Virus record (IMG/VR): IMGVR_UViG_3300020414_002094
Coordinates: 1-31,251 of that record
Length of the DNA: 31,251 bases
Strand: one strand, 5' to 3'
From: a virus
Taxonomy: Duplodnaviria > Caudoviricetes
Shown: one piece after another, positions 2,051 through 30,688 of the stretch
How positions within the stretch are numbered: position 1 is the first letter of the stretch
Layout: every line of letters starts with the position of its first letter
Notes under the pieces: generated by a model
Seen by the model: the letters and a program-made list of their open reading frames with translations, nothing else
Told to the model about the DNA's origin: nothing
Database searches by the model: none
Position numbers and translations under genes: made by a program

Positions 2051-3145
2051 TTAACTTATAGCATAACTAACGATTACAAGACCATGCCCACCAGCAGCGC
2101 CATCGCCATTAGTGGGAGATGCGTATCCACCGCCACCGCCACCACCAGTGTATGCCTTTCCGGGGGCGTTAGCATCTCCACCACCGCCAGTTCCACCAGA
2201 ACCTTGAGAACCGTGGTTCATTCTATAGTTAGCGCCTCCACCGCCACCGCCATATAGTCCAGTAGGTCCAACGTTGTTTTGAAAGTCAACTCTTGTTGGA
2301 GCAGGGATACCAGGACCAATAAGGGGACCAGGATAAGCTGGGAGTGCCACACCATTGCCACCATCACCACCAGCGTTAGTTCCATCAGCCGAGGGAGCTT
2401 CACCCGCTCCACCACATCCTGATCCACCACCACCAGATCCATAAATGGACGTGCCAGTGTGTCCAGCATTTCCGTAAACCGTAACAGTTCCAGGACAATT
2501 GGGATAGACAGGGGCGTTTGGAGGTGCAACAAGACCACCACCGGTGTTTGATTGTGCTCCTCCACCACCGTTACCACCACCATGGGCAGCTCCAGGAGTT
2601 CCACTACCAGAAGTAGCACCACCACCGCCACCCTTTGCCGTCAGTGCAATCTGTGCCTGCGCTGGTCCAAGAGCAAAAGGACTGAAATCAATAACTGAAT
2701 CACTACCGTTTGTACCACGTTGCTCATCGGAAGTCTGTGCAGCTGCTCCAGGACCAACGGTTACTGGATAACTAACGGGACCACCCGAAGCACCATAAAT
2801 TTGATAACTGCTCAAATAAACAGCGCCACCACCACCAGCGCCAGCACTTCCAGCGTAGGATGGTCCAGATTTACCACCAGAACCTCCACCTGCTAAGATC
2901 AATGCATTTATAGTGCCATTCATTCCTGGACCAGGAGCAACAACTAAGGAACCACTAGAAAGAAAAACGTGATATTTATTTCCATTTCCAGGAGTTAATA
3001 CCGCATCTCCACCAGTCACCGTAAATGGTCCTGATGCTGCTCCTGCTGCACCACCTAACGAAATCCCAGTTCCTCCACCACCAAATCCAGTTAATGAGAG
3101 AATAGGTGACTCTTTTACATTGAAAAAGTTACTAAAAAATGACAT
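2051..3145 (-). CDS. Gly/Pro-rich adhesin-like virion protein (class I)
   Basis: KESPILSLTGFGGG leader, PGNG.KYHVFLSSG, many GGGGG runs, GPTGLYGGGGGG, and C-terminal GHGLVIVSY; strong RBS AGGAGG. Confidence 0.8.
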   Translation of the reverse strand: MSFFSNFFNVKESPILSLTGFGGGGTGISLGGAAGAASGPFTVTGGDAVLTPGNGNKYHVFLSSGSLVVAPGPGMNGTINALILAGGGSGGKSGPSYAGSAGAGGGGAVYLSSYQIYGASGGPVSYPVTVGPGAAAQTSDEQRGTNGSDSVIDFSPFALGPAQAQIALTAKGGGGGATSGSGTPGAAHGGGNGGGGAQSNTGGGLVAPPNAPVYPNCPGTVTVYGNAGHTGTSIYGSGGGGSGCGGAGEAPSADGTNAGGDGGNGVALPAYPGPLIGPGIPAPTRVDFQNNVGPTGLYGGGGGGANYRMNHGSQGSGGTGGGGDANAPGKAYTGGGGGGGYASPTNGDGAAGGHGLVIVSYAIS

Positions 3146-3157
3146 TAGCTACCCTCC

Positions 3158-3961
3158 TCAAGAAGTCTTACTGTGATTGCCGATGACCGTAAACGTTGCG
3201 TTCGCTGTCTTAATAATAGTGAAGGAATGAATATCAACTCCACTGGAACCACCACTAGAGGGAGCAGAACCTCCAATCCAATTTTCTGTTTGTGCTCCAC
3301 CATCAATCGTCATTTGTGCTGAATATGCAGATGCATTTGCAGTTGTAATTAAGGTAACAACGATAGACTGACCAATGCTCATTCTGGCATTAAGTGCAGT
3401 AGAACCATTGTATCTGATGTTTGGTGTTGATGTGGTAGATTCTGCCGTGGTGAACAGATGAACCATTCCATCTTCAACGTTGATGTTTGTATTATCGCTT
3501 AACTTACCAGCAGTTACATTAACTTCTTCTGCCAGAATATCTTCAAGATTTAATCCACTATGGAAAGTTCCGATTCCAGTAGCAGTGACACCAGCACCTA
3601 AAACTGCGACTCCTGATCTTGCAGTTACAATGCCGATGGAGTCAACATTAACAACATCTTCGTAAGAGAGTTTACCACTGAAGGTAGCGGCAACACCCGT
3701 AATATTTCTGACAGAGACATCACCAGAGAAAGTACCAGCAGTGCCAGTGATATTACCACTGAACATTACAGCGGTCGCGATGCCAGTAGAATTTACTCCC
3801 TTAACACTAATATCTGGAGTCCCCGTTAATCCAGCGGCGCTAGTGGCAGAACCGTCAAAACTGGTGGCAGTGGCAACACCAGAGACATTTATACCTTTAT
3901 TAAAGGAAATTGGTGATGCACCATCCTCAGATTTTATAGTGTTAACCCTAATTTCAGACAT
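3158..3961 (-). CDS. short fibre-like carrier protein
   Basis: MSEIRVNTI N-terminus, YEDVVNVDSIGIVTAR module, and C-terminal KLS..NI..E.GMVH domain shared with 20251 and 22068. Confidence 0.8.
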   Translation of the reverse strand: MSEIRVNTIKSEDGASPISFNKGINVSGVATATSFDGSATSAAGLTGTPDISVKGVNSTGIATAVMFSGNITGTAGTFSGDVSVRNITGVAATFSGKLSYEDVVNVDSIGIVTARSGVAVLGAGVTATGIGTFHSGLNLEDILAEEVNVTAGKLSDNTNINVEDGMVHLFTTAESTTSTPNIRYNGSTALNARMSIGQSIVVTLITTANASAYSAQMTIDGGAQTENWIGGSAPSSGGSSGVDIHSFTIIKTANATFTVIGNHSKTS

Positions 3962-3988
3962 CGTTTCTTAAAATCCTTTTCTATACTT

Positions 3989-3996
3989 TATTTATC
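3989..3996 (-). promoter_or_regulatory. T4-type late promoter GATAAATA
   Basis: NATAAATA about 28 nt upstream of ATG 3961. Confidence 0.6.
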
Positions 3997-4396
3997 AAAA
4001 TACACCTAGGACATTTGTATGTAAGGTGGTGCCAGATCCAACGTGGAATGTTGCACCAACTCCTACATAAACGATCCCTTCTCTGATAAATGCCATATTT
4101 CCTGAGGCAGCATCAGATTCAACAGAAATAGATGTTCCTGCACCAATGTTTACCTGTTGTGGTGTCTTGAAGAAAACATTGAGCGGTGAGGTTTGATCAG
4201 TTGAAAGCGCAGTAGCAAATCCACTAACACCAGTTAACTCACTTCCATCACCAACCACTTTAGTTGCAGTGATAGTACCATCAACATCTAATTTAGTTGT
4301 AGGTTGTGTGCTGCCAATACCAGCACGACTATTATCACTATCCAGAGTGAGTAAATCTTGTACTGCTAAATTGGCAAGTGTTACTGCTCTAGTCAT
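3995..4396 (-). CDS. short fibre/branch protein (MTRA type)
   Basis: GIGSTQP..KLDVDG and GDGSELTGV fibre modules; collinear with the first ~130 aa of 11493..13190. Confidence 0.8.
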   Translation of the reverse strand: MTRAVTLANLAVQDLLTLDSDNSRAGIGSTQPTTKLDVDGTITATKVVGDGSELTGVSGFATALSTDQTSPLNVFFKTPQQVNIGAGTSISVESDAASGNMAFIREGIVYVGVGATFHVGSGTTLHTNVLGVF

Positions 4397-4416
4397 TATG
4401 CCAGTTACTTTCTAGT

Positions 4417-4424
4417 TATTTATA
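4417..4424 (-). promoter_or_regulatory. T4-type late promoter TATAAATA
   Basis: Exact consensus about 20 nt upstream of ATG 4396. Confidence 0.8.
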
Positions 4425-4614
4425 TTCCAGCACCGCCACCTTCTTGAATGGGTGCTAAAACCCATTGCAGGTTATCTTCATCCCAATTCCATATTTGTCC
4501 ATCAGTAGGTTGAGGTGTAGGTGGTGTCCATTCACCATCAACTAAACTCCACGATGGAAACATATAAAGTGCTTCGTACTCCGACTGACTTAATCCTTCC
4601 GATGAAATTGCCAT
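4420..4614 (-). CDS. small Trp/Pro-rich phage protein (possible fibre accessory)
   Basis: PSWSL...WTPPTPQPTDGQIWNWDE...W motif of a type I recall beside Gly-rich phage tail genes. Confidence 0.65.
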   Translation of the reverse strand: MAISSEGLSQSEYEALYMFPSWSLVDGEWTPPTPQPTDGQIWNWDEDNLQWVLAPIQEGGGAGI

Positions 4615-4628
4615 TAGTATAATTTTTT

Positions 4629-5258
4629 TTAAATATTTAGTTCCATCGTCTTTACATCACTTACATTCCCTTTGACAAAACAATTAAAGGAGAGACTAAA
4701 ACGACTTTGATATGAATTATTGCGCTCAACACTATGAAGAAGATGTGATGGAAAAATAAACAAATCTTCGGACACGGGATTCATACTCCACGATCTTGAA
4801 TTGTAAATATTATCATTCTCTACGTCTGGAAATATGGTTGATGTCATAAATGTTGGAAGAGAATGTGGAGCATGAAAAATTAACTTTCCACAGTTCTCAT
4901 TAGGAACGTCCAAGTACAACACTCCACTAAAAATTGAGTTGCAATGCACATGTGCTTGTGCAAAGTCACCACTATCATGTTTATTAATCCATGATGATGT
5001 AATATATAAATTAATTTCTTTAAGTTGCAAAACGTTGAATGCATAATTTTTTACATGCTCAACAATTTCGCATTTGATTCTACGAAAAATTCTTCTATCT
5101 AAAAAATTTTTCTCTTTAGTTGTCTTACCGTTTCCACTATCATATCCCTGATAATTCAGATGAGGAAGTTTATCATTAATGAATGATTTTTCCTTATCAA
5201 CAAAAAAGATTTTGTCCCGATATATCGGTGTGGAGAAGAGAGGAGTTATATCAGGCAT
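4629..5258 (-). CDS. 2OG-Fe(II) oxygenase-like, TIGR02466 type
   Basis: LFSTPIY, SWIN...HVH.NS.FSGVLY, FPSHLLHSV and RFSLSFN. Confidence 0.85.
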   Translation of the reverse strand: MPDITPLFSTPIYRDKIFFVDKEKSFINDKLPHLNYQGYDSGNGKTTKEKNFLDRRIFRRIKCEIVEHVKNYAFNVLQLKEINLYITSSWINKHDSGDFAQAHVHCNSIFSGVLYLDVPNENCGKLIFHAPHSLPTFMTSTIFPDVENDNIYNSRSWSMNPVSEDLFIFPSHLLHSVERNNSYQSRFSLSFNCFVKGNVSDVKTMELNI

Positions 5259-5868
5259 CTTTAATATTCAATTCTTCATATCCACCACAATCAATCTGCC
5301 CAAGTAAAAATGAATTAAACGCCACTGAAATTCTCCATTTGTTAGAGGTATTTACTGGAACTGAGTGAGTCAAGTTAGATGGAAAAATAACTAACATTCC
5401 ATCTTTCAAGTTAATTGTATAGTTTGAACTATTGAAGGATGTTTCTTCCCTTCTTCTATACTCTAAGAAATATCGGTTGGTTTTTTCAAATTCAAGTAAA
5501 GGCACAGAATCTTCGACTTGCAAATAATATATTCCACTCAAAATACTATTTGAGTGTTGATGAAATCTATGGCAATTACCCGTGTGTGAATAGTTACCCC
5601 AAGAATTAGTAATCTTTATTTTATTATCACACTTCATAATATCAGAAACATATGCTTCAAGATGTCCCTGCAAATATTTTTTAAACCTTCGCAATTTTCT
5701 ATCCTCTAGAATTCTTCCAGAGTAACTTGCGTGACAGTTATGATAATTGTTGTCATTATCTAATCTGTAGTTCCATATTACATCTCTTTCTTTTTCTGTC
5801 AAAGAAAATGATGGATCTAAAATAGAAACTACCGCTGTTGGAAATAAAGAATGAAGTTCGATTTCCAT
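5251..5868 (-). CDS. 2OG-Fe(II) oxygenase-like, TIGR02466 type
   Basis: LFPTAV, SWGN...HQHSNSILSGIYY, FPSNLTHSV and RISVAFN. Confidence 0.85.
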   Translation of the reverse strand: MEIELHSLFPTAVVSILDPSFSLTEKERDVIWNYRLDNDNNYHNCHASYSGRILEDRKLRRFKKYLQGHLEAYVSDIMKCDNKIKITNSWGNYSHTGNCHRFHQHSNSILSGIYYLQVEDSVPLLEFEKTNRYFLEYRRREETSFNSSNYTINLKDGMLVIFPSNLTHSVPVNTSNKWRISVAFNSFLLGQIDCGGYEELNIKDA

Positions 5869-5870
5869 GA

Positions 5871-6398
5871 TTAATTTAACTCATACTGAAATGCAATAGA
5901 CAACCTACCAAAGTCATTACATAACAGGTTGGGAGGGACAGGTTTATGATCTGTTTTACCTGGAAAGCATACACATCTTCCTGGTTTTGCAGCAACAAAA
6001 TGAGTCCTGAATCCTTTCTTAAATTTTGTGCCTGAACCCCAATACCACTTCCAAACAGGATTGACATACATTAAAACAGTGCTTCCTGATCTATCCTGAT
6101 GATAATTAAATTGATCTCCAGGTTTGATGCAATTCACATAGAAATGTCTTAATCTATTACAGTTAGGCAGTCCTGAGTTGCGAATATATTCATCAAAATA
6201 CGAAACCATGGGAATAGTTTCTAATGCTCTTACAAGATCCTCATGCTCATATCCTCTACCAAACGCCGCTTTCTTGATATTTGACCCAGGTTTATCAGAT
6301 ACCACAGTCCAATAAAAATTATGCCTTAAATCTAGATATGCAGAATTAACAGTTTTGCGGTCAATAAAATTATCTAACTTGATGATGTCGTTCTTCAT
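5871..6398 (-). CDS. 2OG-Fe(II) oxygenase (prolyl-hydroxylase-like)
   Basis: HQD, TVLMYVNP.W...WG.GT.F, KPGR.V.F...H and R.SIAFQ; start set at ATG 6398 (MKNDIIKLDNF). Confidence 0.8.
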   Translation of the reverse strand: MKNDIIKLDNFIDRKTVNSAYLDLRHNFYWTVVSDKPGSNIKKAAFGRGYEHEDLVRALETIPMVSYFDEYIRNSGLPNCNRLRHFYVNCIKPGDQFNYHQDRSGSTVLMYVNPVWKWYWGSGTKFKKGFRTHFVAAKPGRCVCFPGKTDHKPVPPNLLCNDFGRLSIAFQYELN

Positions 6399-6987
6399 AA
6401 TTCCACAATCCTTTTCTGATAATAATAAGTTGATTTTCAATATGCAGAGATTTAATCCACCATGAATAAAGGTTCATCCTTTCTGGATAATCAAGACAGT
6501 CAGTTATCCCATTTGCATTTAATAATAGTTGATATGCAAATTTTTCTAATCCATTACTATAACCAGCATTTTCAATACAGTATATTCCACCGTCAGCAAG
6601 AATAGGGAAGAGATTTTCAAATGACTGAATTATATCAGAGGCATCATGGGAAGCATCATCTATAATGATATCAAAAGATCCATATTTTTTCAACCTATCA
6701 TAAAACGAGTTCTCTCTTAAATCCCCGATTTCAAATTTAAGGGGATGTCTCAGTGGAATAATAATCTTATCACTATATTTTTCAACACCCACAAGAAGAG
6801 ACAACTTAGAAAAATATTTTTGCCATAAGTGAAGAGAACCTCCCTTGTCAATACCTAACTCTAAAATTCTAAGATTATCCTTATCCAAAAACTTTTTAAA
6901 TTCCTTATCATAAGTCTCTAGAAAATGATGTTTTTCAAATTCAACGCCATCCCAATCTTTTTCTAATTCTTGTAAAGTAGTCTGCAT
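6370..6987 (-). CDS. class I SAM-dependent methyltransferase (O-methyltransferase-like)
   Basis: ILELGIDKGGSLHLW..YF, FDIIIDDASH and L..GGIYCIE. Confidence 0.85.
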   Translation of the reverse strand: MQTTLQELEKDWDGVEFEKHHFLETYDKEFKKFLDKDNLRILELGIDKGGSLHLWQKYFSKLSLLVGVEKYSDKIIIPLRHPLKFEIGDLRENSFYDRLKKYGSFDIIIDDASHDASDIIQSFENLFPILADGGIYCIENAGYSNGLEKFAYQLLLNANGITDCLDYPERMNLYSWWIKSLHIENQLIIIRKGLWNYEERHHQVR

Positions 6988-7573
6988 GATAAAAATTTTT
7001 GTATGATGATTCTATTGGTTTTGTTACATTAAAATTGAATGACACTATTGTTTTTTGAGTATCATTCAAGAGAGGTGGTGCTCTATGTATGAAGAAACTT
7101 GGAAAAAAGATTAGGTCACCTTCTTCAACGTCCATACGACGAATTTTTCTGTTGTTGAATGGGTCAACAATTTCAGTGTTAGGTGACTTTTTATCTAGTT
7201 GAACATAATACACACCTGTAAAATTTTCTGCATGTGTATGCCACCCATGAGTATTGTGCTTCTTATATTGTTGAAACCATATACCACGAAATTTTATACC
7301 CTGATATGACATGGAGTATATCATATGAGTTAGTTCACTCTCAAGTAAAGGTAGAAAGTATTTTACCCATTCTCTATCATAATTATTGCAGTGTCTCCAA
7401 TCTAGTTTGGAAAAAGAATCTGGAAACTCTAAATCATTGATACGATAACCCTGTCCAATATCAACAGTCTCTCCCTCACATGACTCAAAAAATTTAAGAA
7501 GTTTTTGATTGATTGATTTGTAATCTTTTAGTTTAGATTTAACAACAGGGCAACTGAATTTATACTTTTGCAT
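6941..7573 (-). CDS. 2OG-Fe(II) oxygenase-like (HxH type)
   Basis: WFQQY....HGWHTH, FTGVYY, EGDLIFFPSFFIHR and KTIVSFN; ATG 7573 chosen as start. Confidence 0.8.
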   Translation of the reverse strand: MQKYKFSCPVVKSKLKDYKSINQKLLKFFESCEGETVDIGQGYRINDLEFPDSFSKLDWRHCNNYDREWVKYFLPLLESELTHMIYSMSYQGIKFRGIWFQQYKKHNTHGWHTHAENFTGVYYVQLDKKSPNTEIVDPFNNRKIRRMDVEEGDLIFFPSFFIHRAPPLLNDTQKTIVSFNFNVTKPIESSYKNFYHADYFTRIRKRLGWR

Positions 7574-8264
7574 AACAATGTGCTCTGTCACCATCACGAA
7601 ACACGAAATTGCAAATTAGGAAGTGTGCGTATGTGTCGTCTACTTTTTTAAATTTTTGGACCAATCTGTTCTGATTGGATAAAAGTGGTTGAGTACAATA
7701 TGGAATTTCTACTCCATTGTATATCAATACATCTCCAGTAGACAAAGAAATTTTAGTCTCTACACCTTGTTTCCATACAACATCTAACTTTTTCCTGTCA
7801 TCATACCAAGTTCTTGTTCTTATATAATGATTCCACTTTTTATTTAAGTTTGAACCTAAACACACTAAAACCTTTACCTCACCATCGTCTTCACTAATGG
7901 ATGGGGGAATAGAATCTCCTGAATGAAAAATTCTATCAGTATAATATGTTGTTAATAATTTTCTACCAAGGTGAAATTGTGCAAATTTTTTAACTTCATA
8001 ATAAAGATCTCTGTAAAGTGGATATCTTACTCTTTCAAAGGTATTACTTTCTTTATGAGTGTAATCATCAAGATTATGAGAATGAAAAATTCTTATTCCT
8101 TGCTCTGAATTGTCATTATTAGGAACTTTGGAGACATCTAAGATTGTCGGACAGTCCGATACACCTTTTTCGTAGTGAAGATATCCCAAATCATCATATT
8201 GAGAGTTCCAACTCCAGGAAGAAAGATAATTCTGTTTAATAATCTGTTCAATAGGATTTGTCAT
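7560..8264 (-). CDS. degenerate paralog of the 2OG-Fe(II)-like protein at 14353..15084
   Basis: Collinear (RYPLYR, LGRKL..TYY.DR, GD.LIY.G.E.P, final H...C.A) but lacks the HxD and distal His. Confidence 0.7.
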   Translation of the reverse strand: MTNPIEQIIKQNYLSSWSWNSQYDDLGYLHYEKGVSDCPTILDVSKVPNNDNSEQGIRIFHSHNLDDYTHKESNTFERVRYPLYRDLYYEVKKFAQFHLGRKLLTTYYTDRIFHSGDSIPPSISEDDGEVKVLVCLGSNLNKKWNHYIRTRTWYDDRKKLDVVWKQGVETKISLSTGDVLIYNGVEIPYCTQPLLSNQNRLVQKFKKVDDTYAHFLICNFVFRDGDRAHCYAKV

Positions 8265-8812
8265 GGTTTAACTGGGAACTTAATATCGAATCCAATACAT
8301 CTTCTAGTTATAAAGGAATTATTAGGATAAAAATGATGCAGAACTACAGAAGGGAAAAATAATATGTCACCTTCTTCAATGTTTTGTGGACTATACCAAC
8401 TTAGATACCCGTTGAATGGGTCATTAAATGGGGACACGAAAGTGGTTGTTTCATGCAGTCTTGGAACATAATCAAGATACATAACGCCAGAATACCCAAA
8501 TGTTCCATGATTATGAACTGACTGAAATTCTCCCTTCTTATATCTTACTGTCCAGATGTCCGTAATAAGACACTCTTCTTGGTTTATTTCATCCAACCAA
8601 TCATCGATTTCTTCTTTAAATATTTGAACAAAGTCTTTGATATAAGATTTACCATCGTTCTGCCTATCCGTGCCAAACGTATGTAAACCTTTCTTTTCAA
8701 TTTTTTTGTAATCAATGATATTGTTTATTTGCTTTTTCTTCTCCTTCCAGTTATTTGTTCTAACAACGTAGAGGGGAAGTGCAAACATATTGTCACTTCT
8801 GATTCTAAACAT
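8261..8812 (-). CDS. 2OG-Fe(II) oxygenase-like (HxH type)
   Basis: TDIWTVRYKKGEFQSVHNH, GVMYLDY and FFPS..LH; paralog of 13215..13763. Confidence 0.8.
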   Translation of the reverse strand: MFRIRSDNMFALPLYVVRTNNWKEKKKQINNIIDYKKIEKKGLHTFGTDRQNDGKSYIKDFVQIFKEEIDDWLDEINQEECLITDIWTVRYKKGEFQSVHNHGTFGYSGVMYLDYVPRLHETTTFVSPFNDPFNGYLSWYSPQNIEEGDILFFPSVVLHHFYPNNSFITRRCIGFDIKFPVKP

Positions 8813-8815
8813 AGA

Positions 8816-9406
8816 CTACTCTTCTCCTCCAAATGTATACCATCCAGTCATGATATATTTTACATCAGTTTGCTCTGTTTGTCCTCTATGTATATGTGTC
8901 CAGTCAGCAGGCCAAATTACAATCGAACCCTCTTTTGCTTGGGTGGTTAAACCTTGATACATGAATTCTGTGCCACCTTTATCCACATCATTTAAATAAA
9001 TCATCCACACTAATTTTCTATTAGAGGACGGTTTACCAGATGATTCCGAATGCCAGTTAAAATATCCTTCTCCAGGATAATATCTTTGAATATTGAAATA
9101 TGGACACATACTCCAATATTCCATTTTAGTTAATCCCTCGTAAAATCTTTTGTAATACGAATTTAATACCGCATTATCTAAAGATTTGAGAAATGGATTT
9201 AAAACTCTTGTTATTTTCCTATCAGAACTATCTTCAGGTCCAAAACAAAGATCAGTAGACGCTTTTAAACTACGATCTACCTCTTGATTTCCTTGTTTAC
9301 CTGCTTCTTTATAGGGAGATTTTTCAAAAAAATTGATTAATCTTTTACAATCGCGGGAGGAGATAGCATTCTCCTCCACGTAAATGAAGTCAAAAAAAGT
9401 TTTCAT
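8816..9406 (-). CDS. 2OG-Fe(II) oxygenase (prolyl 4-hydroxylase-like)
   Basis: IQRY.PGEGYFNWHSE, R.LVWMIYLNDV..GGTEF, WPADWTH.HRG and KYIMTGW. Confidence 0.9.
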   Translation of the reverse strand: MKTFFDFIYVEENAISSRDCKRLINFFEKSPYKEAGKQGNQEVDRSLKASTDLCFGPEDSSDRKITRVLNPFLKSLDNAVLNSYYKRFYEGLTKMEYWSMCPYFNIQRYYPGEGYFNWHSESSGKPSSNRKLVWMIYLNDVDKGGTEFMYQGLTTQAKEGSIVIWPADWTHIHRGQTEQTDVKYIMTGWYTFGGEE

Positions 9407-9424: not shown

Positions 9425-10480
9425 TTAACTCTTGTGTCCGAACGTTCTACCGTTACTCCATGTGGGGCAGTTCAAATACCAATATGGTGAAGCACTGGGA
9501 CCTGCTGGGGGATAGTATTCATTAGTGGTGCTAGACAAGGATGGATCAACATGACTCGATCCTCCACCACCGTATCCAGAACCATGGCAGTCACCACCGT
9601 CACGACCGCCGCCACCGCCACCATACCATCCATCATATCCACTTCCAGCGGATCCACCCGATCCTCTACCACCTGAGAAACCGCTTCCGGGGTTGGGGGG
9701 AGTTCCAGTTCTGTGAGGACCTCCACCACCACCTCCATTGGAGTTTTGAGTTCCACCGCCGCCGCCACTTGCTCCGCGACAACCAGAACCATAAGAATTA
9801 CCACCGGTAGCGTCAGGTCCACCAGCACGTCCATTATTGTTTCCAGAACCACCAGAACCAGCAAGTAACAAAACCCTATCTCTATTTGTAGAGTCGTTGT
9901 CAATGGATGGTGAATCACCTGAGAAGAATCCCGCGATACCTCCCCTGAAGAATGTTTTTTTAGCGAGGATGGCATATAAACCATCGGTATGTTTTGTTTG
10001 CCAGTTTGGATGAGTGCCTCTCACATATCCGTGAGTTTCATCATGTCCTCTGGTGTGAATTAAATGATTCTCAGTGCCAGTGTTCCCAGTAAATTTAATT
10101 GGGTTAGCGGTAGATGCACTATTAGGATATCTTGATACTCTATATCCAGACAGATTAGCAGTGTTAGATGCTAAAGGTGCAGGAGTTCCTGGTCCTGTGA
10201 AAAATTCAACAGTGGTAGTTGCATCTGCAGCAGGCATATTGCCATGAACAAATACTTCTGCTCCACTGTAAGCGAACACCATACCGTAGTTTGCTGTTCC
10301 ACTGATAGCAGCAGTGGAGTTGTCACTTTCACTAACAGCGTCTTGGAACTGTGCTCCTGAAACAAAAGGAGGAGAACCACCGGTGTCTGGTGCTTTACCA
10401 AAACCAAAACCAGCGATACCTCTTGTTATACCACTGAAAAAGGGTGCTTCCTTTGTAAAGAAATCATTGAAAATTCCCAT
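9425..10480 (-). CDS. Gly-rich adhesin-like virion protein (class II)
   Basis: KEAPFFSGITRG..GFGFG leader; LLLAGSGG, GGGGTQ and GWYGGGGGG...GGGGSS, resembling ALK/LTK-type Gly-rich domains; RBS GGAGG. Confidence 0.8.
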   Translation of the reverse strand: MGIFNDFFTKEAPFFSGITRGIAGFGFGKAPDTGGSPPFVSGAQFQDAVSESDNSTAAISGTANYGMVFAYSGAEVFVHGNMPAADATTTVEFFTGPGTPAPLASNTANLSGYRVSRYPNSASTANPIKFTGNTGTENHLIHTRGHDETHGYVRGTHPNWQTKHTDGLYAILAKKTFFRGGIAGFFSGDSPSIDNDSTNRDRVLLLAGSGGSGNNNGRAGGPDATGGNSYGSGCRGASGGGGGTQNSNGGGGGGPHRTGTPPNPGSGFSGGRGSGGSAGSGYDGWYGGGGGGRDGGDCHGSGYGGGGSSHVDPSLSSTTNEYYPPAGPSASPYWYLNCPTWSNGRTFGHKS

Positions 10481-13211: not shown

Positions 13212-13219
13212 TATTTAGA
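13212..13219 (-). promoter_or_regulatory. T4-type late promoter variant TCTAAATA
   Basis: About 22 nt upstream of ATG 13190. Confidence 0.55.
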
Positions 13220-15084: not shown

Positions 15085-15092
15085 GTTCTACC

Positions 15093-21041: not shown

Positions 21042-21049
21042 TATTTATC
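21042..21049 (-). promoter_or_regulatory. T4-type late promoter GATAAATA
   Basis: GATAAATAACTAAAAA upstream of ATG 21024. Confidence 0.7.
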
Positions 21050-22871: not shown

Positions 22872-23584
22872 CAGAGATCTCCGATTTGAAGTACGTCAAT
22901 GATCATAGTTTTACCTGCTCCAACTGTCACAGCAACGCCAGAGTTAATCTCAATGTTAGGAACAACACTAACAATAATAGAAGTGCTGACACCTGCATTT
23001 TCATCATTAAGCAGCATGTCTTCACTTACTTGCGTAAATCTATCAATATAACTGAATGGAGATGCAGTTCCATTTGAATAGTTAATAGCAGTTCCTAATC
23101 CACCGCCACCACTACCAGAGATGGCAACGTCAATAGTGCCGTCACCTTTATCAAGGAAAGTATTTCCAGTTCCAACAAAGTTTAAAGTTTTTGCGGTTCC
23201 AACAGCGGTGCCTGCTGACTGAATACCTATGGTTGATCCAGTTACAGATGTAAGACCTACAATCGTCCCACTGACAGTTAAATCACCATTAATCGTTTGT
23301 GCTGCTGCATTAGCTTGAAGTGCATCAGCAACTCTGAAGGTATCAAAAACTTCAAATAAAACCGTGTCACCAACGTTAGCAGCGTTGTTTAAGGTTACTG
23401 TAGAACCATCATTGGCAGTAAAGTCCGAACTCTGTGAAAGTTGAACACCATTACGAAATACTGCAAGTTGATTAATGCGATAACCGCCAGTAACCGTAAA
23501 AGCAGTTTGTCCTGCGGTTGCAGTTACCGTAATAATCTTAGATGCAACGTTATTTGTTAATGTTATAGGATTGCCTATTGCCAT
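22871..23584 (-). CDS. fibre/branch protein with N-terminal ATAGQT.F..Y...V..NGV domain
   Basis: N-domain resembles that of 27941; C-terminal GLGTA...NIEINSGVAVTVG domain resembles 3995. Confidence 0.75.
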   Translation of the reverse strand: MAIGNPITLTNNVASKIITVTATAGQTAFTVTGGYRINQLAVFRNGVQLSQSSDFTANDGSTVTLNNAANVGDTVLFEVFDTFRVADALQANAAAQTINGDLTVSGTIVGLTSVTGSTIGIQSAGTAVGTAKTLNFVGTGNTFLDKGDGTIDVAISGSGGGGLGTAINYSNGTASPFSYIDRFTQVSEDMLLNDENAGVSTSIIVSVVPNIEINSGVAVTVGAGKTMIIDVLQIGDL

Positions 23585-23613: not shown

Positions 23614-24180
23614 TTAAAGAGTGTAGTATCTATATGGCGTATGAGATTCAATCCATAATGTTGATTCGTCAAAGTGAATATCCATGGCAACACTAATCCG
23701 AATATCTTTACTATTGTTTGGATGAACACAATGCATTGTTCTGGCATCAAACAAAGACATCTGACCATATCGGTTATTAAATTTTTTGATTTTACCATTC
23801 AAATTGTAGTATGTCCCAATGGATCTATCTCCAGAAATAAAAATATTTGCAGAAAGGAAATTGTTATCTTTATGGTGTGTATTATGTTTATGCCACTTAA
23901 TCCCTTCGTTATCTCTAAAAGTATTTGCCCAACACTGAACTATTACATTTTCAGGGTAGTTATATTTTCTAAGAGTCTTTTTTAATTTTGGAGCAAAAAT
24001 ATCTCTAAACTCTGTCTCATAAAAAAAGTTAAAGAAAGGGTGTCTACCTGTAAGTGAATCGTCCGATGTTCCCCAATAAACATCAGGTCCCATGGATTTA
24101 ATACTTTTTTCTTTACTTAAAATGAGTGATTTTATAATCTCACATTCTTTTCTAGATAAAAAAATAAATCTTTTAAACAT
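23614..24180 (-). CDS. 2OG-Fe(II) oxygenase-like (HxH, QCWAN subfamily)
   Basis: VQCWANTFRDNEGIKWHKH, H.V.PN and RISVAMD. Confidence 0.75.
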   Translation of the reverse strand: MFKRFIFLSRKECEIIKSLILSKEKSIKSMGPDVYWGTSDDSLTGRHPFFNFFYETEFRDIFAPKLKKTLRKYNYPENVIVQCWANTFRDNEGIKWHKHNTHHKDNNFLSANIFISGDRSIGTYYNLNGKIKKFNNRYGQMSLFDARTMHCVHPNNSKDIRISVAMDIHFDESTLWIESHTPYRYYTL

Positions 24181-25333
24181 TTATAATATCTCTTCTAGTT
24201 TTTCCTGTCATTCCACAATGAACGTGCAGATTATCCTCTCCTAAGAAACATGCCAACTGTGAATAATTTTTATTATAACAAATATCATTCCTAATACATT
24301 CCTCAAACGTGGAAATATCTCCATGTATGGGTAACTTATCTATTAACTTTTTCGCATTTCTTTGAGTATCTTTCCAGAAATCTGATTTAAATTTTGATCC
24401 ATAAGAATAATGAAATGCCACAAGTTCTTGATAGGCAATAATCTTCTCTAAGTATTCCTTATTTGTATCTGCATTGTTTAAGTAATTCATGTCGGTTGCA
24501 TATGAACATACCATCTCAGCAAATATGACATAATAATGTAAAGAAAGAGCCTGTAACGGTTCTATAAAGAATAAACAATTTCCATTAAGGGATTGCCTTC
24601 TCGAAATAAGAATTTTATTAGAAAATCTTTGTTCCCATTCTAAGACGGTCACATTTTCCTTATGTATGGTATTTTTTGCTTCCTCTACACTTTGATAATT
24701 TCTGTTGAACAGATAACCTTGCCTCGATAAGTTTTGTTCAGGAAAAGGAAGTTCAAATTGCCACCCGTTTTCATGTGCTCTATGCACGGTGTATGAATAG
24801 TCCTCAATATAATTGTCATTATACACCAATGCTGAGTTGACAGTTTCAAATATCGCTTTTCTATATTCTAAATTCAACCCATCCCAACCTGTACAGTGAG
24901 AGACAAATTCAAATTTTCTATCAGCAATTATTACACCATCCTCAACCTCATTGACAGTGCTGACATTCATGTCAACATACTCAACCCCGCAGGAACTTAA
25001 GATATTGTGTATGTATTGATTAAATTTCTTGGTTAAAAAATGTGCAGCAAGGGGAGTATCACTAAAAAAATGATGGCGAAATGATGGTTGACTACCCCAA
25101 TTTATAAACTTAATTCCATTTTTAAAAGAGACAATGCCATCATCAAGCATATCACCGATAGAAATTCTACAAACATCTTGAACTAATTTGGTTACTATTG
25201 GAGTTGTTGATTCTCCAACACAAATTTCTGGGATAGAGGAATCATAAAATATTGTTACTCTGTGCCCGTATTTTATGAAGGTAAGTGCTTGTATGATCGC
25301 ACCAGTTCCCTTACCGATGATTGCAATATTCAT
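24173..25333 (-). CDS. tryptophan halogenase (PrnA)-family flavoprotein, short and divergent
   Basis: IAIIGKGTGA Rossmann motif, VGESTTP, K.GIKFINW, GWQFELP (variant of WxWxIP) and GN...FIEPLQA. Confidence 0.85.
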   Translation of the reverse strand: MNIAIIGKGTGAIIQALTFIKYGHRVTIFYDSSIPEICVGESTTPIVTKLVQDVCRISIGDMLDDGIVSFKNGIKFINWGSQPSFRHHFFSDTPLAAHFLTKKFNQYIHNILSSCGVEYVDMNVSTVNEVEDGVIIADRKFEFVSHCTGWDGLNLEYRKAIFETVNSALVYNDNYIEDYSYTVHRAHENGWQFELPFPEQNLSRQGYLFNRNYQSVEEAKNTIHKENVTVLEWEQRFSNKILISRRQSLNGNCLFFIEPLQALSLHYYVIFAEMVCSYATDMNYLNNADTNKEYLEKIIAYQELVAFHYSYGSKFKSDFWKDTQRNAKKLIDKLPIHGDISTFEECIRNDICYNKNYSQLACFLGEDNLHVHCGMTGKTRRDIINV

Positions 25334-25383
25334 ACTTTTATACTATACTTCTACAATATACCACAAAAACTATATGGAGCCAA
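25321..25383. promoter_or_regulatory. candidate overlapping divergent sigma70-like promoters
   Basis: Plus strand TTGCAA-17-TATACT (25321-25349); minus strand TTGGCT-17-TATATT with TGn (25383-25355). The AT-rich context lowers significance. Confidence 0.4.
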
Positions 25384-26051
25384 TACAATATGAAAGTTTG
25401 TTCCCAACTCCATTATTCAGAACAAAATTATATCCAGATGACCTTGAGTTGTTGAAAGATGACATAGTTAATAATCACAAAGAGTATGTGAGTAGTGGAA
25501 ATGTCAATGAAGAAATGCTTGCCGATGGGGAAAATGCTTTTACTGGTCTACAATACAATGAAAAATATTCTTCATTTATGGGAAGAATAAATGAAATCGT
25601 AAGTCATACCCTTAAACAAGTATATTGCTACGATGACGATATAGAACCATACGTTTGTGATATGTGGAGTACTTGCTGCTGTCCAGGAGAAAGTGGAGAG
25701 GGGCATTATCATTGTAACAGTCAGTTCAGTGGCACTTTTTATCCCTTTGATGAAACTCCATCAGAAATTAGTTTTTATTCTCCAAACCACGAAAAAAACT
25801 CACTAAACATTAATGGAAATGTTAGTGAGTGGAATCCTTTAAATTGTACTCAATATACTATTAAACCAGAAAAATGTGATTTGATATTTTTTCCAAGTTA
25901 TTTAAAACATAAAGTTCAACAGAATAAAACAAATATCGTCAGATATTCATTAGCTTTTAATGTATATCTTAAAGGAAACTTAAAAGCAAAAACAGGTACT
26001 TTATATTTACCCGGTCCTTATAATAACGATACCGTTTCCTCCGTCCTTTGA
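25374..26051 (+). CDS. 2OG-Fe(II) oxygenase-like, TIGR02466 type; the only plus-strand gene
   Basis: LFPTPLF, MW...HYHCNSQFSGTFY, FPSYLKHKV and RYSLAFN; ATG 25374 avoids overlap with the halogenase start. Confidence 0.85.
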   Translation: MEPIQYESLFPTPLFRTKLYPDDLELLKDDIVNNHKEYVSSGNVNEEMLADGENAFTGLQYNEKYSSFMGRINEIVSHTLKQVYCYDDDIEPYVCDMWSTCCCPGESGEGHYHCNSQFSGTFYPFDETPSEISFYSPNHEKNSLNINGNVSEWNPLNCTQYTIKPEKCDLIFFPSYLKHKVQQNKTNIVRYSLAFNVYLKGNLKAKTGTLYLPGPYNNDTVSSVL

Positions 26052-27047
26052 AACTGGAGTTGGTCCTCCGAAGTTGGAGTTTCCACCTCCACCACCACCT
26101 AAGCCATCGATACCTGCTTCTGTGTTTCCTTTTTGGTTACTTCCGTCGTTGTCTGATGCCTTTCCGCCTCCACCTGGAACATGGGGAGGTTTATCTGCTT
26201 CGCCTTTATTGTTAACCCATCCATCTCTTCCTGATCCACCACCGCCACCACCAGCCCAAGAACCATTACCACCTTGATAAGGAGTGATTGAAGGAATACC
26301 GATTAAATCTCCAGTGTAAAGTGGGAAAGGTTGACCATTTCCTCCAAAAGAAGGTTGGTTTGTGTTATTTGTGAAATATGTGGCTTGAGCATTTTCTCCA
26401 GCAGCACTACCGCCACCTCCGCCGCCACCAGTGTAAAATGCACCACTTCCGCCAGGATTGCCATATTGAGTAATATTTGATATCCCTGGATTTTGTGCAG
26501 GTTGAGTTCCTGGTCCACCATCAATTCTAGACCATCCAGCACTATCGCGACCTCCACCACATCCACCATCCATGGAACCAGACCCGCCAGCACCACCTCC
26601 TTTTGCAGTGATAGATCCAAATTTACTATCACCACCTCTAGTAGCGTTAGGGCCACCTGGCGTCCATCTTGTTCCACCACTTCCTACACTGATGGGGACT
26701 GGTCCAGGCATGGGATGAGGTGCGCTGCTAATAACGATACCACCAGCACCGCCTCCTCCATTTTGACCTCCGCCGCCACCACCAACAATTAAGAAGTTGA
26801 CGGATACGCTACCACCACCGCCACCACCAACAGCAGCACCCTTAATTACTGAACTATCCCAAGTATTAGCAAAAGATAATCCTCCTGCTGTTGCATTAGC
26901 AGTTCCAGGTGAAGTGAACGTATAATAAGAATAACCATTTCCAGGAGTTGCTGTATAATCAGATCCGCTAATAGAAGCAGCAGTCTCCGACTGGAACCTA
27001 CCTATTTTACTATATTTTTCAAGTTTGCTAAGTTTAGAAATACTCAT
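26007..27047 (-). CDS. Gly/Pro-rich adhesin-like virion protein (class I)
   Basis: PGNGYSYYTFTSPG, FLIVGGGGGG and GGNGIVIIR. Confidence 0.8.
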   Translation of the reverse strand: MSISKLSKLEKYSKIGRFQSETAASISGSDYTATPGNGYSYYTFTSPGTANATAGGLSFANTWDSSVIKGAAVGGGGGGSVSVNFLIVGGGGGGQNGGGGAGGIVISSAPHPMPGPVPISVGSGGTRWTPGGPNATRGGDSKFGSITAKGGGAGGSGSMDGGCGGGRDSAGWSRIDGGPGTQPAQNPGISNITQYGNPGGSGAFYTGGGGGGGSAAGENAQATYFTNNTNQPSFGGNGQPFPLYTGDLIGIPSITPYQGGNGSWAGGGGGGSGRDGWVNNKGEADKPPHVPGGGGKASDNDGSNQKGNTEAGIDGLGGGGGGNSNFGGPTPVSKDGGNGIVIIRTG

Positions 27048-27511
27048 CAGCTTGGTTTAGTAGGCCAGGGTAAATCTTCAATATCTTCATACTGCATGAT
27101 GTCAGTTATAGTACTGGCAAAATTTCTAAGAAGGGTTCTATATTCTCTCCACTCCTGCTTTTTATCTTCTGTTATGGGATAATCTTCTACAAAAACGTAG
27201 TCGGAATCACTTAACAACTGATTTTTCCTTTGCTTGAGTGATACCCATCTCATTTCTGATAATTCTTCATCACCTATTAATGGATTATCTGTAACATCGT
27301 AACTCAATGTTTCAGAATTCCAATGTCTTTCCTGTCTCGTAAGGTCATAATCAGGTTCAGTATAAGGACCAGTAAATCCAGCGTCCTTTAATTCTTCATC
27401 TGTGTAAGTCGATACATCACTTCTAACCATCCCATTTGATAGTCTAATTCTATCAGGGAGAAATTTCGGTTCAGCACCATTGAGAGAGTAAAGTCTGTTG
27501 CTATCTGCCAT
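27047..27511 (-). CDS. phage tail-fibre assembly chaperone-like protein
   Basis: C-terminal W..LKQRKNQLLSDSDY...W.EYR..LR...WPTKP pattern typical of tail assembly chaperones. Confidence 0.75.
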   Translation of the reverse strand: MADSNRLYSLNGAEPKFLPDRIRLSNGMVRSDVSTYTDEELKDAGFTGPYTEPDYDLTRQERHWNSETLSYDVTDNPLIGDEELSEMRWVSLKQRKNQLLSDSDYVFVEDYPITEDKKQEWREYRTLLRNFASTITDIMQYEDIEDLPWPTKPS

Positions 27512-27528: not shown

Positions 27529-27903
27529 TTAAGAAATTTCTTCGTAAGAACAAACAACGTCCAAATCGTTACCATTAGACGCTGTGCAAACAATAGAACG
27601 ATCCTCTTCAAGATAAATCGCTGCGTTTTTATCAATAACAACCAAGGTAGAATCAGCAGCTACATCTATGGTATGAGCAAGTTTATATGCTGTACCGCCT
27701 CCATCATCTTCACTGTTGATAGAAATTGTAATAGCAGCAGAACTGCTACCATCATCGTTGGCAACAAGTATGTTGTTGATTTTAAAAACCTTCCCGCTAG
27801 AAGCAGGATTACTAACAAGAGTAGTTGCGCTTGTGTTTGTTAAATTTAAGTATGCTGTTTTGCCAGTAATAGTGGCAACATTTACAATGTTGGGTGCAGC
27901 CAT
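27529..27903 (-). CDS. small beta-rich adaptor-like virion protein
   Basis: MAAPNIVNV.TI.GKT...I.VAN.DG...TIDVAADSTLVVI....IYLEE...DLDVVCSYEEIS. Confidence 0.8.
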   Translation of the reverse strand: MAAPNIVNVATITGKTAYLNLTNTSATTLVSNPASSGKVFKINNILVANDDGSSSAAITISINSEDDGGGTAYKLAHTIDVAADSTLVVIDKNAAIYLEEDRSIVCTASNGNDLDVVCSYEEIS

Positions 27904-27940: not shown

Positions 27941-29038
27941 TTAACCAAAAACGATTGACATCGCAATTGCTTTACCAGTTGATGCCTTTGTCTCTAGTGC
28001 TGTCGCGACTTCAGTTGATCCACTACCTACATTAATACTGATAGATGAATATGCGGTTAAAATACCAACGGTGCTCACGCCAGTTGCGGATGTTGAATTA
28101 ACATTACCAGTTACGTTACCAGTTACGTCACCAGTTACGTTACCACCAACGTTACCAGTAACATTACCAGTGATATTACCGGTAAAAGTAGTTGCTGTAA
28201 CTGCAGTTCCACTAACGTTGCCTAGGAAGGTGGTTGCTGTAACAGCAGTTCCAGTTAAATTACCACTAAAATGAGTTGCAGTTGCTACTCCAACAGCGTT
28301 AATACCACCAGCAAGGACTTTGATTCCTGTTCGGGCGGTGATAATACCAATCGAATCTATGTTAGTTGCATCTTCATAAGTTAATACACCACCTACATTT
28401 ACATTTCCCGTAAATGTTGCAGCAACACCACTGATGTTTCTAATTCCAATATCATCAGTGCTTCTTAGTGCAAAAGGAGTGATATTTGCTGATGTGCCAG
28501 AAACGACAATGGTGGTTCCAGAACCAATGAAATTAAGACTGGTGATACCATATCCAATGTTAGTTCCACCTGAGTTGATACCAACACCCTGTTCGATACC
28601 ACTTAGATTGGAACCATCTCCGTAGAATGCTGTTGCAGAAACAATTCCAGTGCTAGCAGTAAGAGTAATGGCACTTCCAACAGTCGCATTGCCTGTAAGT
28701 GTGGATGATCCATTAACAACTAGATCACTACCAACAGTAAAGTTACCTGCTGCCTCAGACACAGAGGTGGCATTAAACGCTTTATACGCCACTGCTTCAA
28801 TTGCGTCACCATCAGAAGCGCCGCCATTCAATATAGAAAATGTAGAACCATCTGAGGAAGTATAATCACTTCCTTCAATCACCTTTACACCGTTAATGTA
28901 AATATCAAAATAACCAGGAGTATAACCAGAGTTGAATGTAAAATCTGTAGTGATTCCGCTAGCAGTGTAACTTTGTCTTGCTACCTGAACTGCAGAGTCA
29001 CTAGGAGATCTTCCAATATAACCGTTTTTACCTGCCAT
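27941..29038 (-). CDS. fibre-like structural protein ending GKAIAMSIVFG
   Basis: YIGRSP N-terminus, GDGSNL, YEDATNIDSIGIITAR and (GNVT)n modules, hydrophobic C-terminal tail. Confidence 0.8.
   Translation of the reverse strand: MAGKNGYIGRSPSDSAVQVARQSYTASGITTDFTFNSGYTPGYFDIYINGVKVIEGSDYTSSDGSTFSILNGGASDGDAIEAVAYKAFNATSVSEAAGNFTVGSDLVVNGSSTLTGNATVGSAITLTASTGIVSATAFYGDGSNLSGIEQGVGINSGGTNIGYGITSLNFIGSGTTIVVSGTSANITPFALRSTDDIGIRNISGVAATFTGNVNVGGVLTYEDATNIDSIGIITARTGIKVLAGGINAVGVATATHFSGNLTGTAVTATTFLGNVSGTAVTATTFTGNITGNVTGNVGGNVTGDVTGNVTGNVNSTSATGVSTVGILTAYSSISINVGSGSTEVATALETKASTGKAIAMSIVFG
28101..28184. repeat. 12-bp tandem repeat x7 encoding TGNV-type tetrapeptides
   Basis: acattaccagtt acgttaccagtt acgtcaccagtt acgttaccacca acgttaccagta acattaccagtg atattaccggta. 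Confidence 0.85.
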
Positions 29039-29589
29039 CAGCTAACTCCTGTAAGAACACTAAGACTTACGTCAACAGCATTATTAGTGTCACAATAGAC
29101 TCTAATCTCATCTTTAGACTCTAATACCGTTTTTCCTGTATCAGAGATAACAAAAGAACTTCCTGCAGGAATGGGGATTTTACTTGCAATCGCAACCGAT
29201 CCAGTAGAAGTAACTCCAACACTACTGTCTAAAAGTTCAACAGTAACATTAACACTGTTACTAGTATTGTTTGCAAAAGTACCACCAACTAAAATCGATT
29301 TAGTTGATACTGGGGAGGTATATGCTGTCGTAGGTCCTAGGAATCTTACAGTCTGACTGGTTGCACTTGCACCGTTCGTAGAATTACGATCAGTGTAGAT
29401 AGTTGTACCGACAATCTGAGCAACTCTCGTTCCAGCGATAAAGTTCTGATTATCAACCAAGTCAGAAACACCAATACCAGTGTTAGCAGTCACCGTAATC
29501 GTGGTTCCTGCAGCACCAATAGTGCTACCAGCATAGGTGGTCACAATACCCGCCGCTCTTGCTAGTGAATTTGAAAAAGCTTCTGCCAT
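29038..29589 (-). CDS. adaptor-like virion protein with an inserted domain
   Basis: C-terminal half FAN...IPIPAGSSFVI...KTVLE..DEIRV...VDVSLSVL matches the 27529/18424 family. Confidence 0.75.
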   Translation of the reverse strand: MAEAFSNSLARAAGIVTTYAGSTIGAAGTTITVTANTGIGVSDLVDNQNFIAGTRVAQIVGTTIYTDRNSTNGASATSQTVRFLGPTTAYTSPVSTKSILVGGTFANNTSNSVNVTVELLDSSVGVTSTGSVAIASKIPIPAGSSFVISDTGKTVLESKDEIRVYCDTNNAVDVSLSVLTGVS

Positions 29590-29609
29590 TTTCCTTTAAG
29601 TGTTATGAG

Positions 29610-29617
29610 TATTTATT
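29610..29617 (-). promoter_or_regulatory. T4-type late promoter AATAAATA
   Basis: Upstream of ATG 29589. Confidence 0.65.
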
Positions 29618-29620
29618 AAA

Positions 29621-30688
29621 TTAACCGCCAAGAGCGATTGCGAGTCCGATAGAGACACCTGGAGTTACGATTGCAGTGGCAATACCACCAGATATAGTAA
29701 CATCCATAGCAGTTCCGTTTGTTGATTTAAAATCAACGATTGTTGCACCTGTTCCAACAAAAGTTCCTTCTGAAGAAACACCAATAGTACCACCACTAGT
29801 AGCAGTGATATTGGTTAAGTTCGCACCGTCACCGTAGAATGCCGTTGCACTTACGATTCCAGTGGAACCATACATGGTAATCGCAGTACCTACGGTAGCG
29901 ATTCCAGTTGCTAAGAAGTCTTTGGTAGTAATCGCGGTGCTAACGTTGATTCTTCTACCAGTAACCTCATCATAAACAATATCATCAGCGACATATAAGT
30001 CACCACCAACATAAAGATCTCCACCAGTGGTAGTGATACCTCCTGATGAAGCGAGTGTAGTGATTCCAGTGACATCAAGACTAGAGTTGATGTCAACTGC
30101 GCCGCCGATAGTAGTGATACCAGAAACATTTAAAGTTCCTGAGATGTCAGCGAAGGAGTTGATGTCTACATTTCCAGTGAAAGTAGAAACACCAGCGTTG
30201 ATAGTTGTAGCAGTAAATCCTGCTCCAGCTACCTGTAATCCATCTTGAATAAAGACATAATCTCTAAATGTGGAATATCCTACAAGAGTAGAAATTCCAG
30301 CAACAAATAACTCATCAAGCGAGGTATCATCTAAGTTGATATCACCAGTGACATGCATGTCACCAAAGACGTATAACGCGGTTGTTCCTGTGCTAACAGG
30401 ACCACGAACGTCTAAAGTATATGCTGGCAACGAAGTACCAACACCAACGTTGTTAGATGAGTTACTTACATAAAAAATACTACCAGAGGCACCAACCTGA
30501 ACGTCGGTGACAAAGGTAGACATTCCTGAAACGATGATGTCGGTTGCACCGATACCACCTCTTACATCAAGAGTTTTTGTAGGTTGGGTTGATCCGATAC
30601 CTACATTCTTAGAAGTACCATCAACGAGAACTGCGTTTGATGCAACTTCTAACCCGTTTTTGACGACAAAATTCTTATTGACTGCCAT
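29621..30688 (-). CDS. fibre-like structural protein ending GLAIALGG
   Basis: NFVVKNGL N-terminus; VGIGST.P, TTGGDLYVGGDL and GDGANL modules; hydrophobic C-terminal tail. Confidence 0.8.
   Translation of the reverse strand: MAVNKNFVVKNGLEVASNAVLVDGTSKNVGIGSTQPTKTLDVRGGIGATDIIVSGMSTFVTDVQVGASGSIFYVSNSSNNVGVGTSLPAYTLDVRGPVSTGTTALYVFGDMHVTGDINLDDTSLDELFVAGISTLVGYSTFRDYVFIQDGLQVAGAGFTATTINAGVSTFTGNVDINSFADISGTLNVSGITTIGGAVDINSSLDVTGITTLASSGGITTTGGDLYVGGDLYVADDIVYDEVTGRRINVSTAITTKDFLATGIATVGTAITMYGSTGIVSATAFYGDGANLTNITATSGGTIGVSSEGTFVGTGATIVDFKSTNGTAMDVTISGGIATAIVTPGVSIGLAIALGG

Follow-up and report, generated by a model that had tools for sequence, protein, structure and literature searches.

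Gene ends predict gene starts in a T4-like cyanophage fibre island: a candidate docking code for a branched receptor-binding appendage

The stretch of DNA analysed here, all of which we call the window, covers positions 1 to 31,251 of the IMG/VR virus record IMGVR_UViG_3300020414_002094 and is part of a genome. It is a fibre island of a T4-like cyanomyovirus. The structural genes are all on the minus strand, and PHROGs places them in cyanophage tail-fibre and baseplate-wedge families or in unnamed families; interspersed among them are genes for 2OG-Fe(II) oxygenases, a halogenase, a sulfotransferase and a methyltransferase. A matching island lies 3' of a fibre gene of ~2000 amino acids (aa) in cultured T4-like cyanophages, where it is large in Bellamy, intermediate in P-TIM68 and minimal in S-SM2. 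An earlier note on this DNA had proposed that the C-terminal type of each structural gene predicts what comes next, and all the genes and motifs it named were found at their coordinates on the minus strand. In the feature list below, role names (root, hub, carrier, adaptor, tip) follow the reading proposed later; in the text genes are called by their lower coordinate, and L numbers denote other loci fetched for comparison.

30732-31251, minus: 3' part of a variable gene that lies before the putative tree root and is truncated by the window edge (172-aa open frame; equivalent slot before MAVNKNF genes in L113-L117)
29621-30688, minus: putative root fibre, MAVNKNF start, hydrophobic tail LAIALGG (phrog_8215 'baseplate wedge initiator', E 9e-36; slot shared with Bellamy, P-TIM68 and S-SM2)
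29038-29589, minus: adaptor, MAE.F.N subtype (phrog_26609; adaptor family; present in 10 cultured-cyanophage records)
27941-29038, minus: fibre, MA..GYIG start, small N-terminal domain in common with 22871, EDVTN box, tail AIAMSIVFG (sequence motifs)
27529-27903, minus: adaptor, MAAPNIV subtype (adaptor family by hhalign; at least 551 related stretches in viral contigs)
27047-27511, minus: tail-fibre assembly chaperone (PF16778, E 1.5e-11)
26007-27047, minus: glycine-rich tip 1, presumed partner of adaptor 27529 (Gly_rich_2, 37.5 bits)
22871-23584, minus: hub with C-terminal branch domain of the K subtype at 22874-23110 (branch-domain profile)
22068-22871, minus: triad carrier 1, MSTLRATNI, domain A at 22071-22442 (motifs; AlphaFold2 pLDDT 96.7)
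21048-22055, minus: glycine-rich tip 2, A-type leader (Gly_rich_2, 27.5 bits)
20251-21024, minus: triad carrier 2, MSKLQVDDIV, domain A at 20254-20625 (motifs)
19210-20238, minus: glycine-rich tip 3, A-type leader (Gly_rich_2, 44.1 bits)
18819-19166, minus: triad carrier 3, MSQLFVDNIK, tail DTWLYG (motifs)
18424-18786, minus: adaptor, MALERGKL subtype, predicted single jelly roll (adaptor family and structure model)
17353-18420, minus: glycine-rich tip 4, with the MAP(I/F)KSS leader typical after MALERGKL adaptors (Gly_rich_2, 51.7 bits)
15762-16673, minus: glycine-rich tip 5, B-type leader, no adjoining carrier, start at 16673 or 16628 (no Pfam family)
11493-13190, minus: hub fibre; acidic branch domain internal, at 12795-13022; further distal domain of its own (branch profile; shaft matches P-SCSP1u fibre gp28, E 9e-14)
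10493-11458, minus: carrier MSRVRANKL, domain B at 10496-10969 (phrog_36132)
9425-10480, minus: tip 6, B-type leader, 22% Gly (no match to the glycine-rich profile)
3995-4396, minus: short hub with C-terminal branch domain of the N subtype at 3998-4231 (phrog_28668; branch profile)
3158-3961, minus: carrier MSEIRVNTI, domain A at 3161-3532 (phrog_5906)
2051-3145, minus: glycine-rich tip 7, A-type leader (Gly_rich_2, 36.2 bits)

Three of the four pairings proposed for the window stand as described. The KLS..NI..GMVH domain (domain A) forms the end of carriers 3158, 20251 and 22068, and each of these carriers is followed after 12 nucleotides (nt) by a gene with a KE(S/K)P..G.GGG leader (2051, 19210 and 21048, respectively). 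Carrier 10493, which has a different C-terminal domain (domain B), is followed, again after 12 nt, by 9425 with its KEAPFFSGITRG leader. Genes 29621 (LAIALGG), 27941 (AIAMSIVFG) and 18819 (TWLYG) come directly before adaptors 29038, 27529 and 18424, which make a single family (hhalign probability 99.4-99.95). The notion that the GG-ending tails merely encode the ribosome site of the next gene was rejected, as the tails lie 31-37 nt before the adaptor start.

The fourth pairing, of genes with a G(L/F).TA...V.VG branch domain and MS-starting carriers, also held, with corrections. Genes 3995, 11493 and 22871 do carry one common domain, each seed converging on the identical 46-49 matches, and they precede the MSEIRVN, MSRVRAN and MSTLRATN carriers; in 11493, however, it lies within the protein (aa 57-132 of 565) and has LIVAEG in place of V.VG. 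The rules are not reversible by adjacency: 15762 has a B-type leader and yet comes after an oxygenase gene, while carriers 20251 and 18819 come after glycine-rich genes with no branch gene directly upstream.

Pairings were then counted across other loci, with genes called by a simple open reading frame (ORF) caller and every adjacent pair classed. For the first set of loci, the window and its identical contig were left out, and a collapse at 90% reduced 1697 pairs to 1330. We found domain A followed by its leader in 60 of 69 cases, domain B by its leader in 6/6, a terminal branch domain by an MS start in 25/28, and a tail by an adaptor in 41/45. The patterns had been written after these data were viewed, and they were therefore frozen before use on 181 later-fetched loci, where removal of pairs at least 90% like earlier ones took 1844 pairs to 1151. 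With the frozen patterns, and with part of the later loci overlapping earlier contigs, the counts were 39/42 for domain A, 12/12 for terminal branch domains before MS-carriers, 50/55 for tails and 1/2 for domain B. Background in the later set was low, other genes preceding an A-type leader in 7 of 976 cases and an MS start in 37 of 976; in the reverse direction, a tail preceded 50 of 60 adaptors.

Neighbour pairings in other genomes are thus non-random and covary at the subtype level, and the gene-order pattern is real and general beyond the window. The misses, judged by eye, were mostly variant leaders or tails, with some true exceptions. An adaptor homologue in S-CBWM1, which lies outside any fibre block, is an exception to the tail-adaptor rule.

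For branch domains we distinguished, after inspection, three subtypes (K, N and acidic), and the subtype of the hub tracked the first carrier: MS.LRVT after K in 16 of 19, MSEIRVN after N in 16 of 19, and MSR(V/I)RA after acidic in 14 of 16. K hubs are followed by three carriers whose order is mostly conserved (MS.LRVT, MSKLQVD, MSQLFVD). Among the 14 hubs that have three or more carriers, nearest-neighbour prediction placed 31 of 42 peptides at the right position (shuffles: mean 14.1, maximum 29, 0/5000 reaching the observed value); one locus, L121, was mis-phased by the carrier pattern. This ordered triad explains the apparently orphan carriers 20251 and 18819. Modules are exchanged within it: the payload at each triad position swaps between domain A, a tail plus adaptor, and a long fibre. 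A heteromeric node or chain suits plugs that are distinct and ordered better than competition for a single site does, and a position-specific series of three carriers with swapping payloads favours display together on one virion. We also observed that internal branch domains co-occur with a second C-terminal socket in a single chain.

A shaft box, EDVTNIDS, recurs in six window genes at 68-86% DNA identity and is present in 27 of 42 A-carriers versus 7 of 27 tail carriers; it is a plausible crossover point for exchange. Genes 27941 and 22871 have a small N-terminal domain in common, the window has two M(T/S)RA(R/V) hubs (11493 and 3995), and the slot order MAVNKNF, adaptor, MA..GYIG, MAIG(N/R)P, M(T/S)RAR recurs in L113, L126 and L130. 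The recurring order and the shared domain hint at a further socket-plug pair. Separately, the C-terminal domain of 11493 (11493-11750) matches phrog_677 and bears a YYQCTAHANMGG motif, which we take to be a candidate cupredoxin-like metal site.

Adaptors supplied a rule that the earlier note did not contain: the subtype of an adaptor tracks both the upstream tail and the following leader. Among 74 adaptor triples (175 before collapse at 85%), adaptor similarity correlated with similarity of the last 14 upstream residues at rho 0.63, compared to just 0.05 for residues -44 to -30, and with that of the next leader at rho 0.38, compared to 0.14 (residues 61-84) and 0.10 further in. One such chain of subtypes runs from DTWLYG through MALERGKL to MAP(I/F)KS. 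The adaptor is predicted to be a single jelly roll, a common fold, like virus turret and cement proteins (Z 9.5). Sequence searches gave no solved relative of the adaptor, and searches of the ESM Atlas with the adaptor and the branch domain returned unnamed viral clusters only. A related grammar was seen in three podovirus-sized contigs (L016, L029, L046), where ASPM.IA.G..LT...NSTMTFV ends come before MSKVIVDEI carriers and ALIIALG tails before MANTFK adaptors.

Domain A is abundant, with 4583 representatives at E<=0.001, and terminates proteins of 146 to 3211 aa; it matched no Pfam family and no solved structure significantly by sequence (best E 0.066). Its three-dimensional model (AlphaFold2 pLDDT, the predicted local distance difference test, 96.7) has phage fibre or baseplate knobs as top fold matches: the knob of the Pa223 capsid spike (Z 7.3, root-mean-square deviation (rmsd) 3.2, 100 residues aligned, 10% identity) and residues 76-181 of CBA120 TSP4 (Z 5.4, rmsd 3.6, 98 aligned). 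With regard to a gp10-like (XD) fold, Foldseek comparisons with TSP4, gp9 and gp10 gave E 0.2-1.8. Two fibres with the T7 tail anchor (PF03906), which are podovirus tail fibres, are capped by domain A, and the gene 3' of one of them has an A-type leader on a body with a weak GP38 match (E 2e-4, below cut-off). The idea that domain B is a remote domain A was dropped, as the two have no detectable homology (hhalign probability 0.3 and 0.7).

Bodies headed by the A-type leader are varied, 30 being glycine-rich and 25 glycine-poor among 59 complete ones. Over 52 rows, conservation at the P, G, G, G and G positions of this leader is 90% or more, with intergenic gaps from -1 to 19 nt. Distinct B-type leaders were found in loci holding domain B in 8/8 cases, two of them non-adjacent. 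A predicted complex of three domain A copies with a 36-residue leader, for which controls were not folded, had a score of 0.02 and a mark of 0.32 and was used neither for nor against docking. The two candidate starts of tip 15762 (16628 and 16673) differ in that the longer form begins MSPIKSS, resembling the adaptor-type leader of 17353; a chimeric double leader was not supported, as the DNA alignment to the 17353 leader region gave no clear relation.

Up to seven different polyglycine adhesins had been proposed for the window. Seven tips are indeed encoded, but only five match Gly_rich_2, so one polyglycine family covers five; tips 15762 and 9425 matched no Pfam family and no profile built from the other tips, and 15762 has no solved relative by sequence. 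A profile of 27 tips matched Pam3 gp24 at E 0.002, with start and end motifs agreeing, and the head profile begins at tip residue 24-39, behind a short Cys-less leader. GP38 (PF05268) matched 0/7 window tips at E<=0.1; a relative elsewhere (L018) gave a weak GP38 match below cut-off. By these profile comparisons, the tips resemble Pam3 gp24 and not T-even gp38. A tblastn search with tip 17353 against cultured phages had no hit at 1e-8, for which the low-complexity filter was probably responsible.

Clusters of 2OG-Fe(II) oxygenase-like genes (964-2048, 4629-9406, 13215-15713, 16727-17326 and 23614-26051) adjoin the Gly/Pro-rich tips. Across loci, an oxygenase lies at most three genes away from 32 of 104 glycine-rich payloads versus 4 of 63 glycine-poor ones, a comparison confounded by lineage; proline hydroxylation of tips could be behind this neighbourhood. 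The sole plus-strand gene is the oxygenase at 25275-26051, whose true start is probably internal, and its slot holds a minus-oriented ORF before MAIGNPIT hubs in L113, L115, L117 and L122.

A TAAATA motif, the core of the T4 late promoter, occurs no more than 45 nt upstream in 11 of 21 structural genes, in 0 of 17 enzyme-type genes (two enzyme starts being called shorter than in the main gene list) and in gene 4420. The latter (4420-4614, 64 aa, with a late-promoter-like motif) has a PTPQP..WNWDED stretch that may be the end of a fibre chaperone, as in MAHF-type genes after tips in other loci. A perfect sigma-70 site, TTGACA-17-TATAAT, at 15765-15737 on the minus strand precedes the 15713-13215 enzyme cluster and suggests its expression apart from the fibre genes.

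We propose that the island encodes a branched receptor-binding appendage assembled by plug-and-socket docking. Each protein would begin with a short N-terminal plug, and its C-terminal end may be one of several sockets. Leaders of the P..G.GGG or P(V/F)F(T/S)G type would fit a domain A or B socket; a hydrophobic tail would hold a jelly-roll adaptor, which would itself take a subtype-specific leader; and a branch domain would take MS-carrier peptides. Plugs and sockets are exchanged between genomes, plausibly via recombination in shared shaft boxes. The gene-order code, the covariation of subtypes, this exchange of modules and the homology to fibres are what the comparisons show. The putative wiring runs 29621-29038-27941-27529-26007; from hub 22871 and its three carriers to tips 21048 and 19210 and, via 18424, to 17353; from hub 11493-10493 to tips 9425 and 15762; and along hub 3995-3158-2051. 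The sockets may be trimeric, and the whole would presumably attach to the tail or baseplate, not the head, share one particle, and bind the host surface by its tips. Physical docking through the code appears quite likely, the branched plug-and-socket appendage as a full explanation reasonably so, and display as one branched tree is somewhat favoured.

Several points weigh against this proposal. The support overall consists of gene order and homology, the loci were retrieved using these very domains, and related phages co-inherit junctions, which deprives the counts of independence. True exceptions include P-SSM7 and L216, where A-carriers stand in tandem, distant tail-less adaptor-like genes, and acidic hubs followed by other peptides in 2 of 16 cases. 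Exchange is not free, as EIRVN carriers end in A or B in 20/20, and no rule accounts for the upstream attachment of hubs 22871, 11493 and 3995. The fold-match scores of domain A (Z 7.3 and 5.4) are middling. For the virion, the detection discussed below was made in another phage and concerns a distant relative of one domain, and T4-GC351, the cluster of the P-SSM7 domain-A carrier, is absent among the rows of Table S8 examined (PMC3037559).

The docking pairs may be real while the modules compete for few sites, so that a burst would yield mixed virions with differing tips and not one tree. Such competition is unlikely, in our judgement. It could account for several same-leader tips after one socket, seen at 5 of 329 distinct sockets in runs of two or three and never more, a pattern that fits trimeric sockets and equally fits alternatives; L121 has three carriers with an identical MSQLFVDNIK start, and S-SM2 copes with a far smaller island. 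On the other hand, position-specific peptides in conserved order after K hubs would be unexpected under competition for one site, and an internal branch domain plus a second C-terminal socket within one chain also speaks for a tree. An invertible or shufflon-type switch was rejected: within this partial genome the structural genes are on one strand, 43 scanned proteins gave no recombinase match, the 9 inverted pairs are all 74-82% complementary, and the window has no long exact inverted repeats.

Stable docking might also be absent altogether, gene end and next start travelling as one DNA block for translational coupling or a transient chaperone-client relation. The 12-nt gap between A/B carriers and tips, with a Shine-Dalgarno-like stretch in 4/4 window cases, the shared shaft boxes of 69-112 nt as possible crossover points, and the real chaperone genes in between would suit such linkage, and plain linkage too predicts correlation decaying with distance. 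Conserved leader residues despite a varying gap, leaders on non-adjacent genes and domain A at the end of anchored tail fibres all count against it; together, the leader on unrelated bodies, domain A on anchored fibres, adaptor covariation and the company of B leaders with domain B make a strong but indirect case for a protein code, and we regard linkage alone as improbable. Least probable is assembly outside the virion, as released decoys or structures on the infected-cell surface. Our searches found no direct virion data for close homologues, and oxygenases, a halogenase and a sulfotransferase are encoded in their midst; yet late-promoter-like motifs precede structural genes, the island adjoins conserved fibre genes, domain A is fused to T7 tail anchors, and T4-GC347, whose P-SSM7 member matches the branch profile as a remote relative (E 7e-12), was detected in S-SM1 virions (PMC3037559, Table S8).

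In T4-like cyanophages, most of the parts used for host recognition carry the annotation 'hypothetical', and the docking code would name candidate receptor-binding tips and predict the number of tips per particle. With it, the relation of host range to island size could be put to the test in Bellamy, a cultured phage with the same island. Domain A is widespread and has neither a Pfam family nor a significant solved sequence relative, so the rule could serve to annotate many uncharacterised fibre regions. More tentatively, with the odds slightly against it, marine cyanomyoviruses and many unrelated marine phages may draw on one recursive toolkit, made up of four or more orthogonal plug-socket pairs that are specific by subtype plus a heteromeric, ordered three-carrier node, in which tree wiring (here seven tips on one particle) would be readable from gene termini.

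A literature search found no account of this code, most subscription papers being outside its reach, and the available portions of PMC12801897, PMC9146016, PMC10575957 and the Pa223 preprint describe no such docking code. The analogy drawn earlier was with T2/S16 gp37-gp38. In T-even and S16 phages, according to the accessible text of PMC3157838, the gp37 C-terminal subtype is invariably paired with the gp38 N-terminal attachment subtype, which its authors read as lock-and-key. The functional likeness stands, since the window too pairs a fibre end with the start of a glycine-rich tip, as in the pair counts; the family relation does not. Among 23 window proteins scanned, no Pfam match to the gp37 C-terminal families or GP38 was found, and a gp37-type distal fibre with a C-terminal chaperone domain, a T-even feature, was not found upstream of the window tips, the carriers having 115-321 aa. 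T-even and S16 phages have one joint per fibre, whereas four or more types of socket occur in the window, arranged both serially and in parallel.

Cyanophage Pam3 has a tail fibre, gp24, with a TNF-like plus glycine-rich head and a chaperone, gp25 (PMC9608196, PMC9942802). The same combination of TNF-like and glycine-rich domain is present by sequence in 5 of the 7 window tips, with a Tfa-type chaperone nearby (27047). Pam3, as far as described there, has one fibre type, anchored to the baseplate wedge by an N-terminal helical bundle and disulfides, while the window has several heads on short, swappable Cys-less leaders. The Pa223 knob, the best fold match of domain A, is the C-terminal knob on a homotrimeric triple beta-helix; it belongs to a head spike, and the available text describes no docked partner for it (10.1101/2025.06.11.659172).

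In Klebsiella KP32 gp37/gp38 and the CBA120 TSPs, a T4 gp10-like branching domain was experimentally shown to dock the conserved N-terminal peptide of the next protein (PMC13352976, accessible part), and domain A resembles a part of TSP4. The tips there are enzymes such as depolymerases, whereas the window heads are glycine-rich and non-enzymatic; the window also differs in its free-standing jelly-roll adaptors, unrelated branch domain and ordered three-carrier series, and its docking is a proposal. Thus, the window seems to work like known docking systems, yet it is not a member of the gp37/gp38 family. It departs from those systems in how many socket types it has, in its free-standing adaptors, in its subtype specificity and in the ordered triad.

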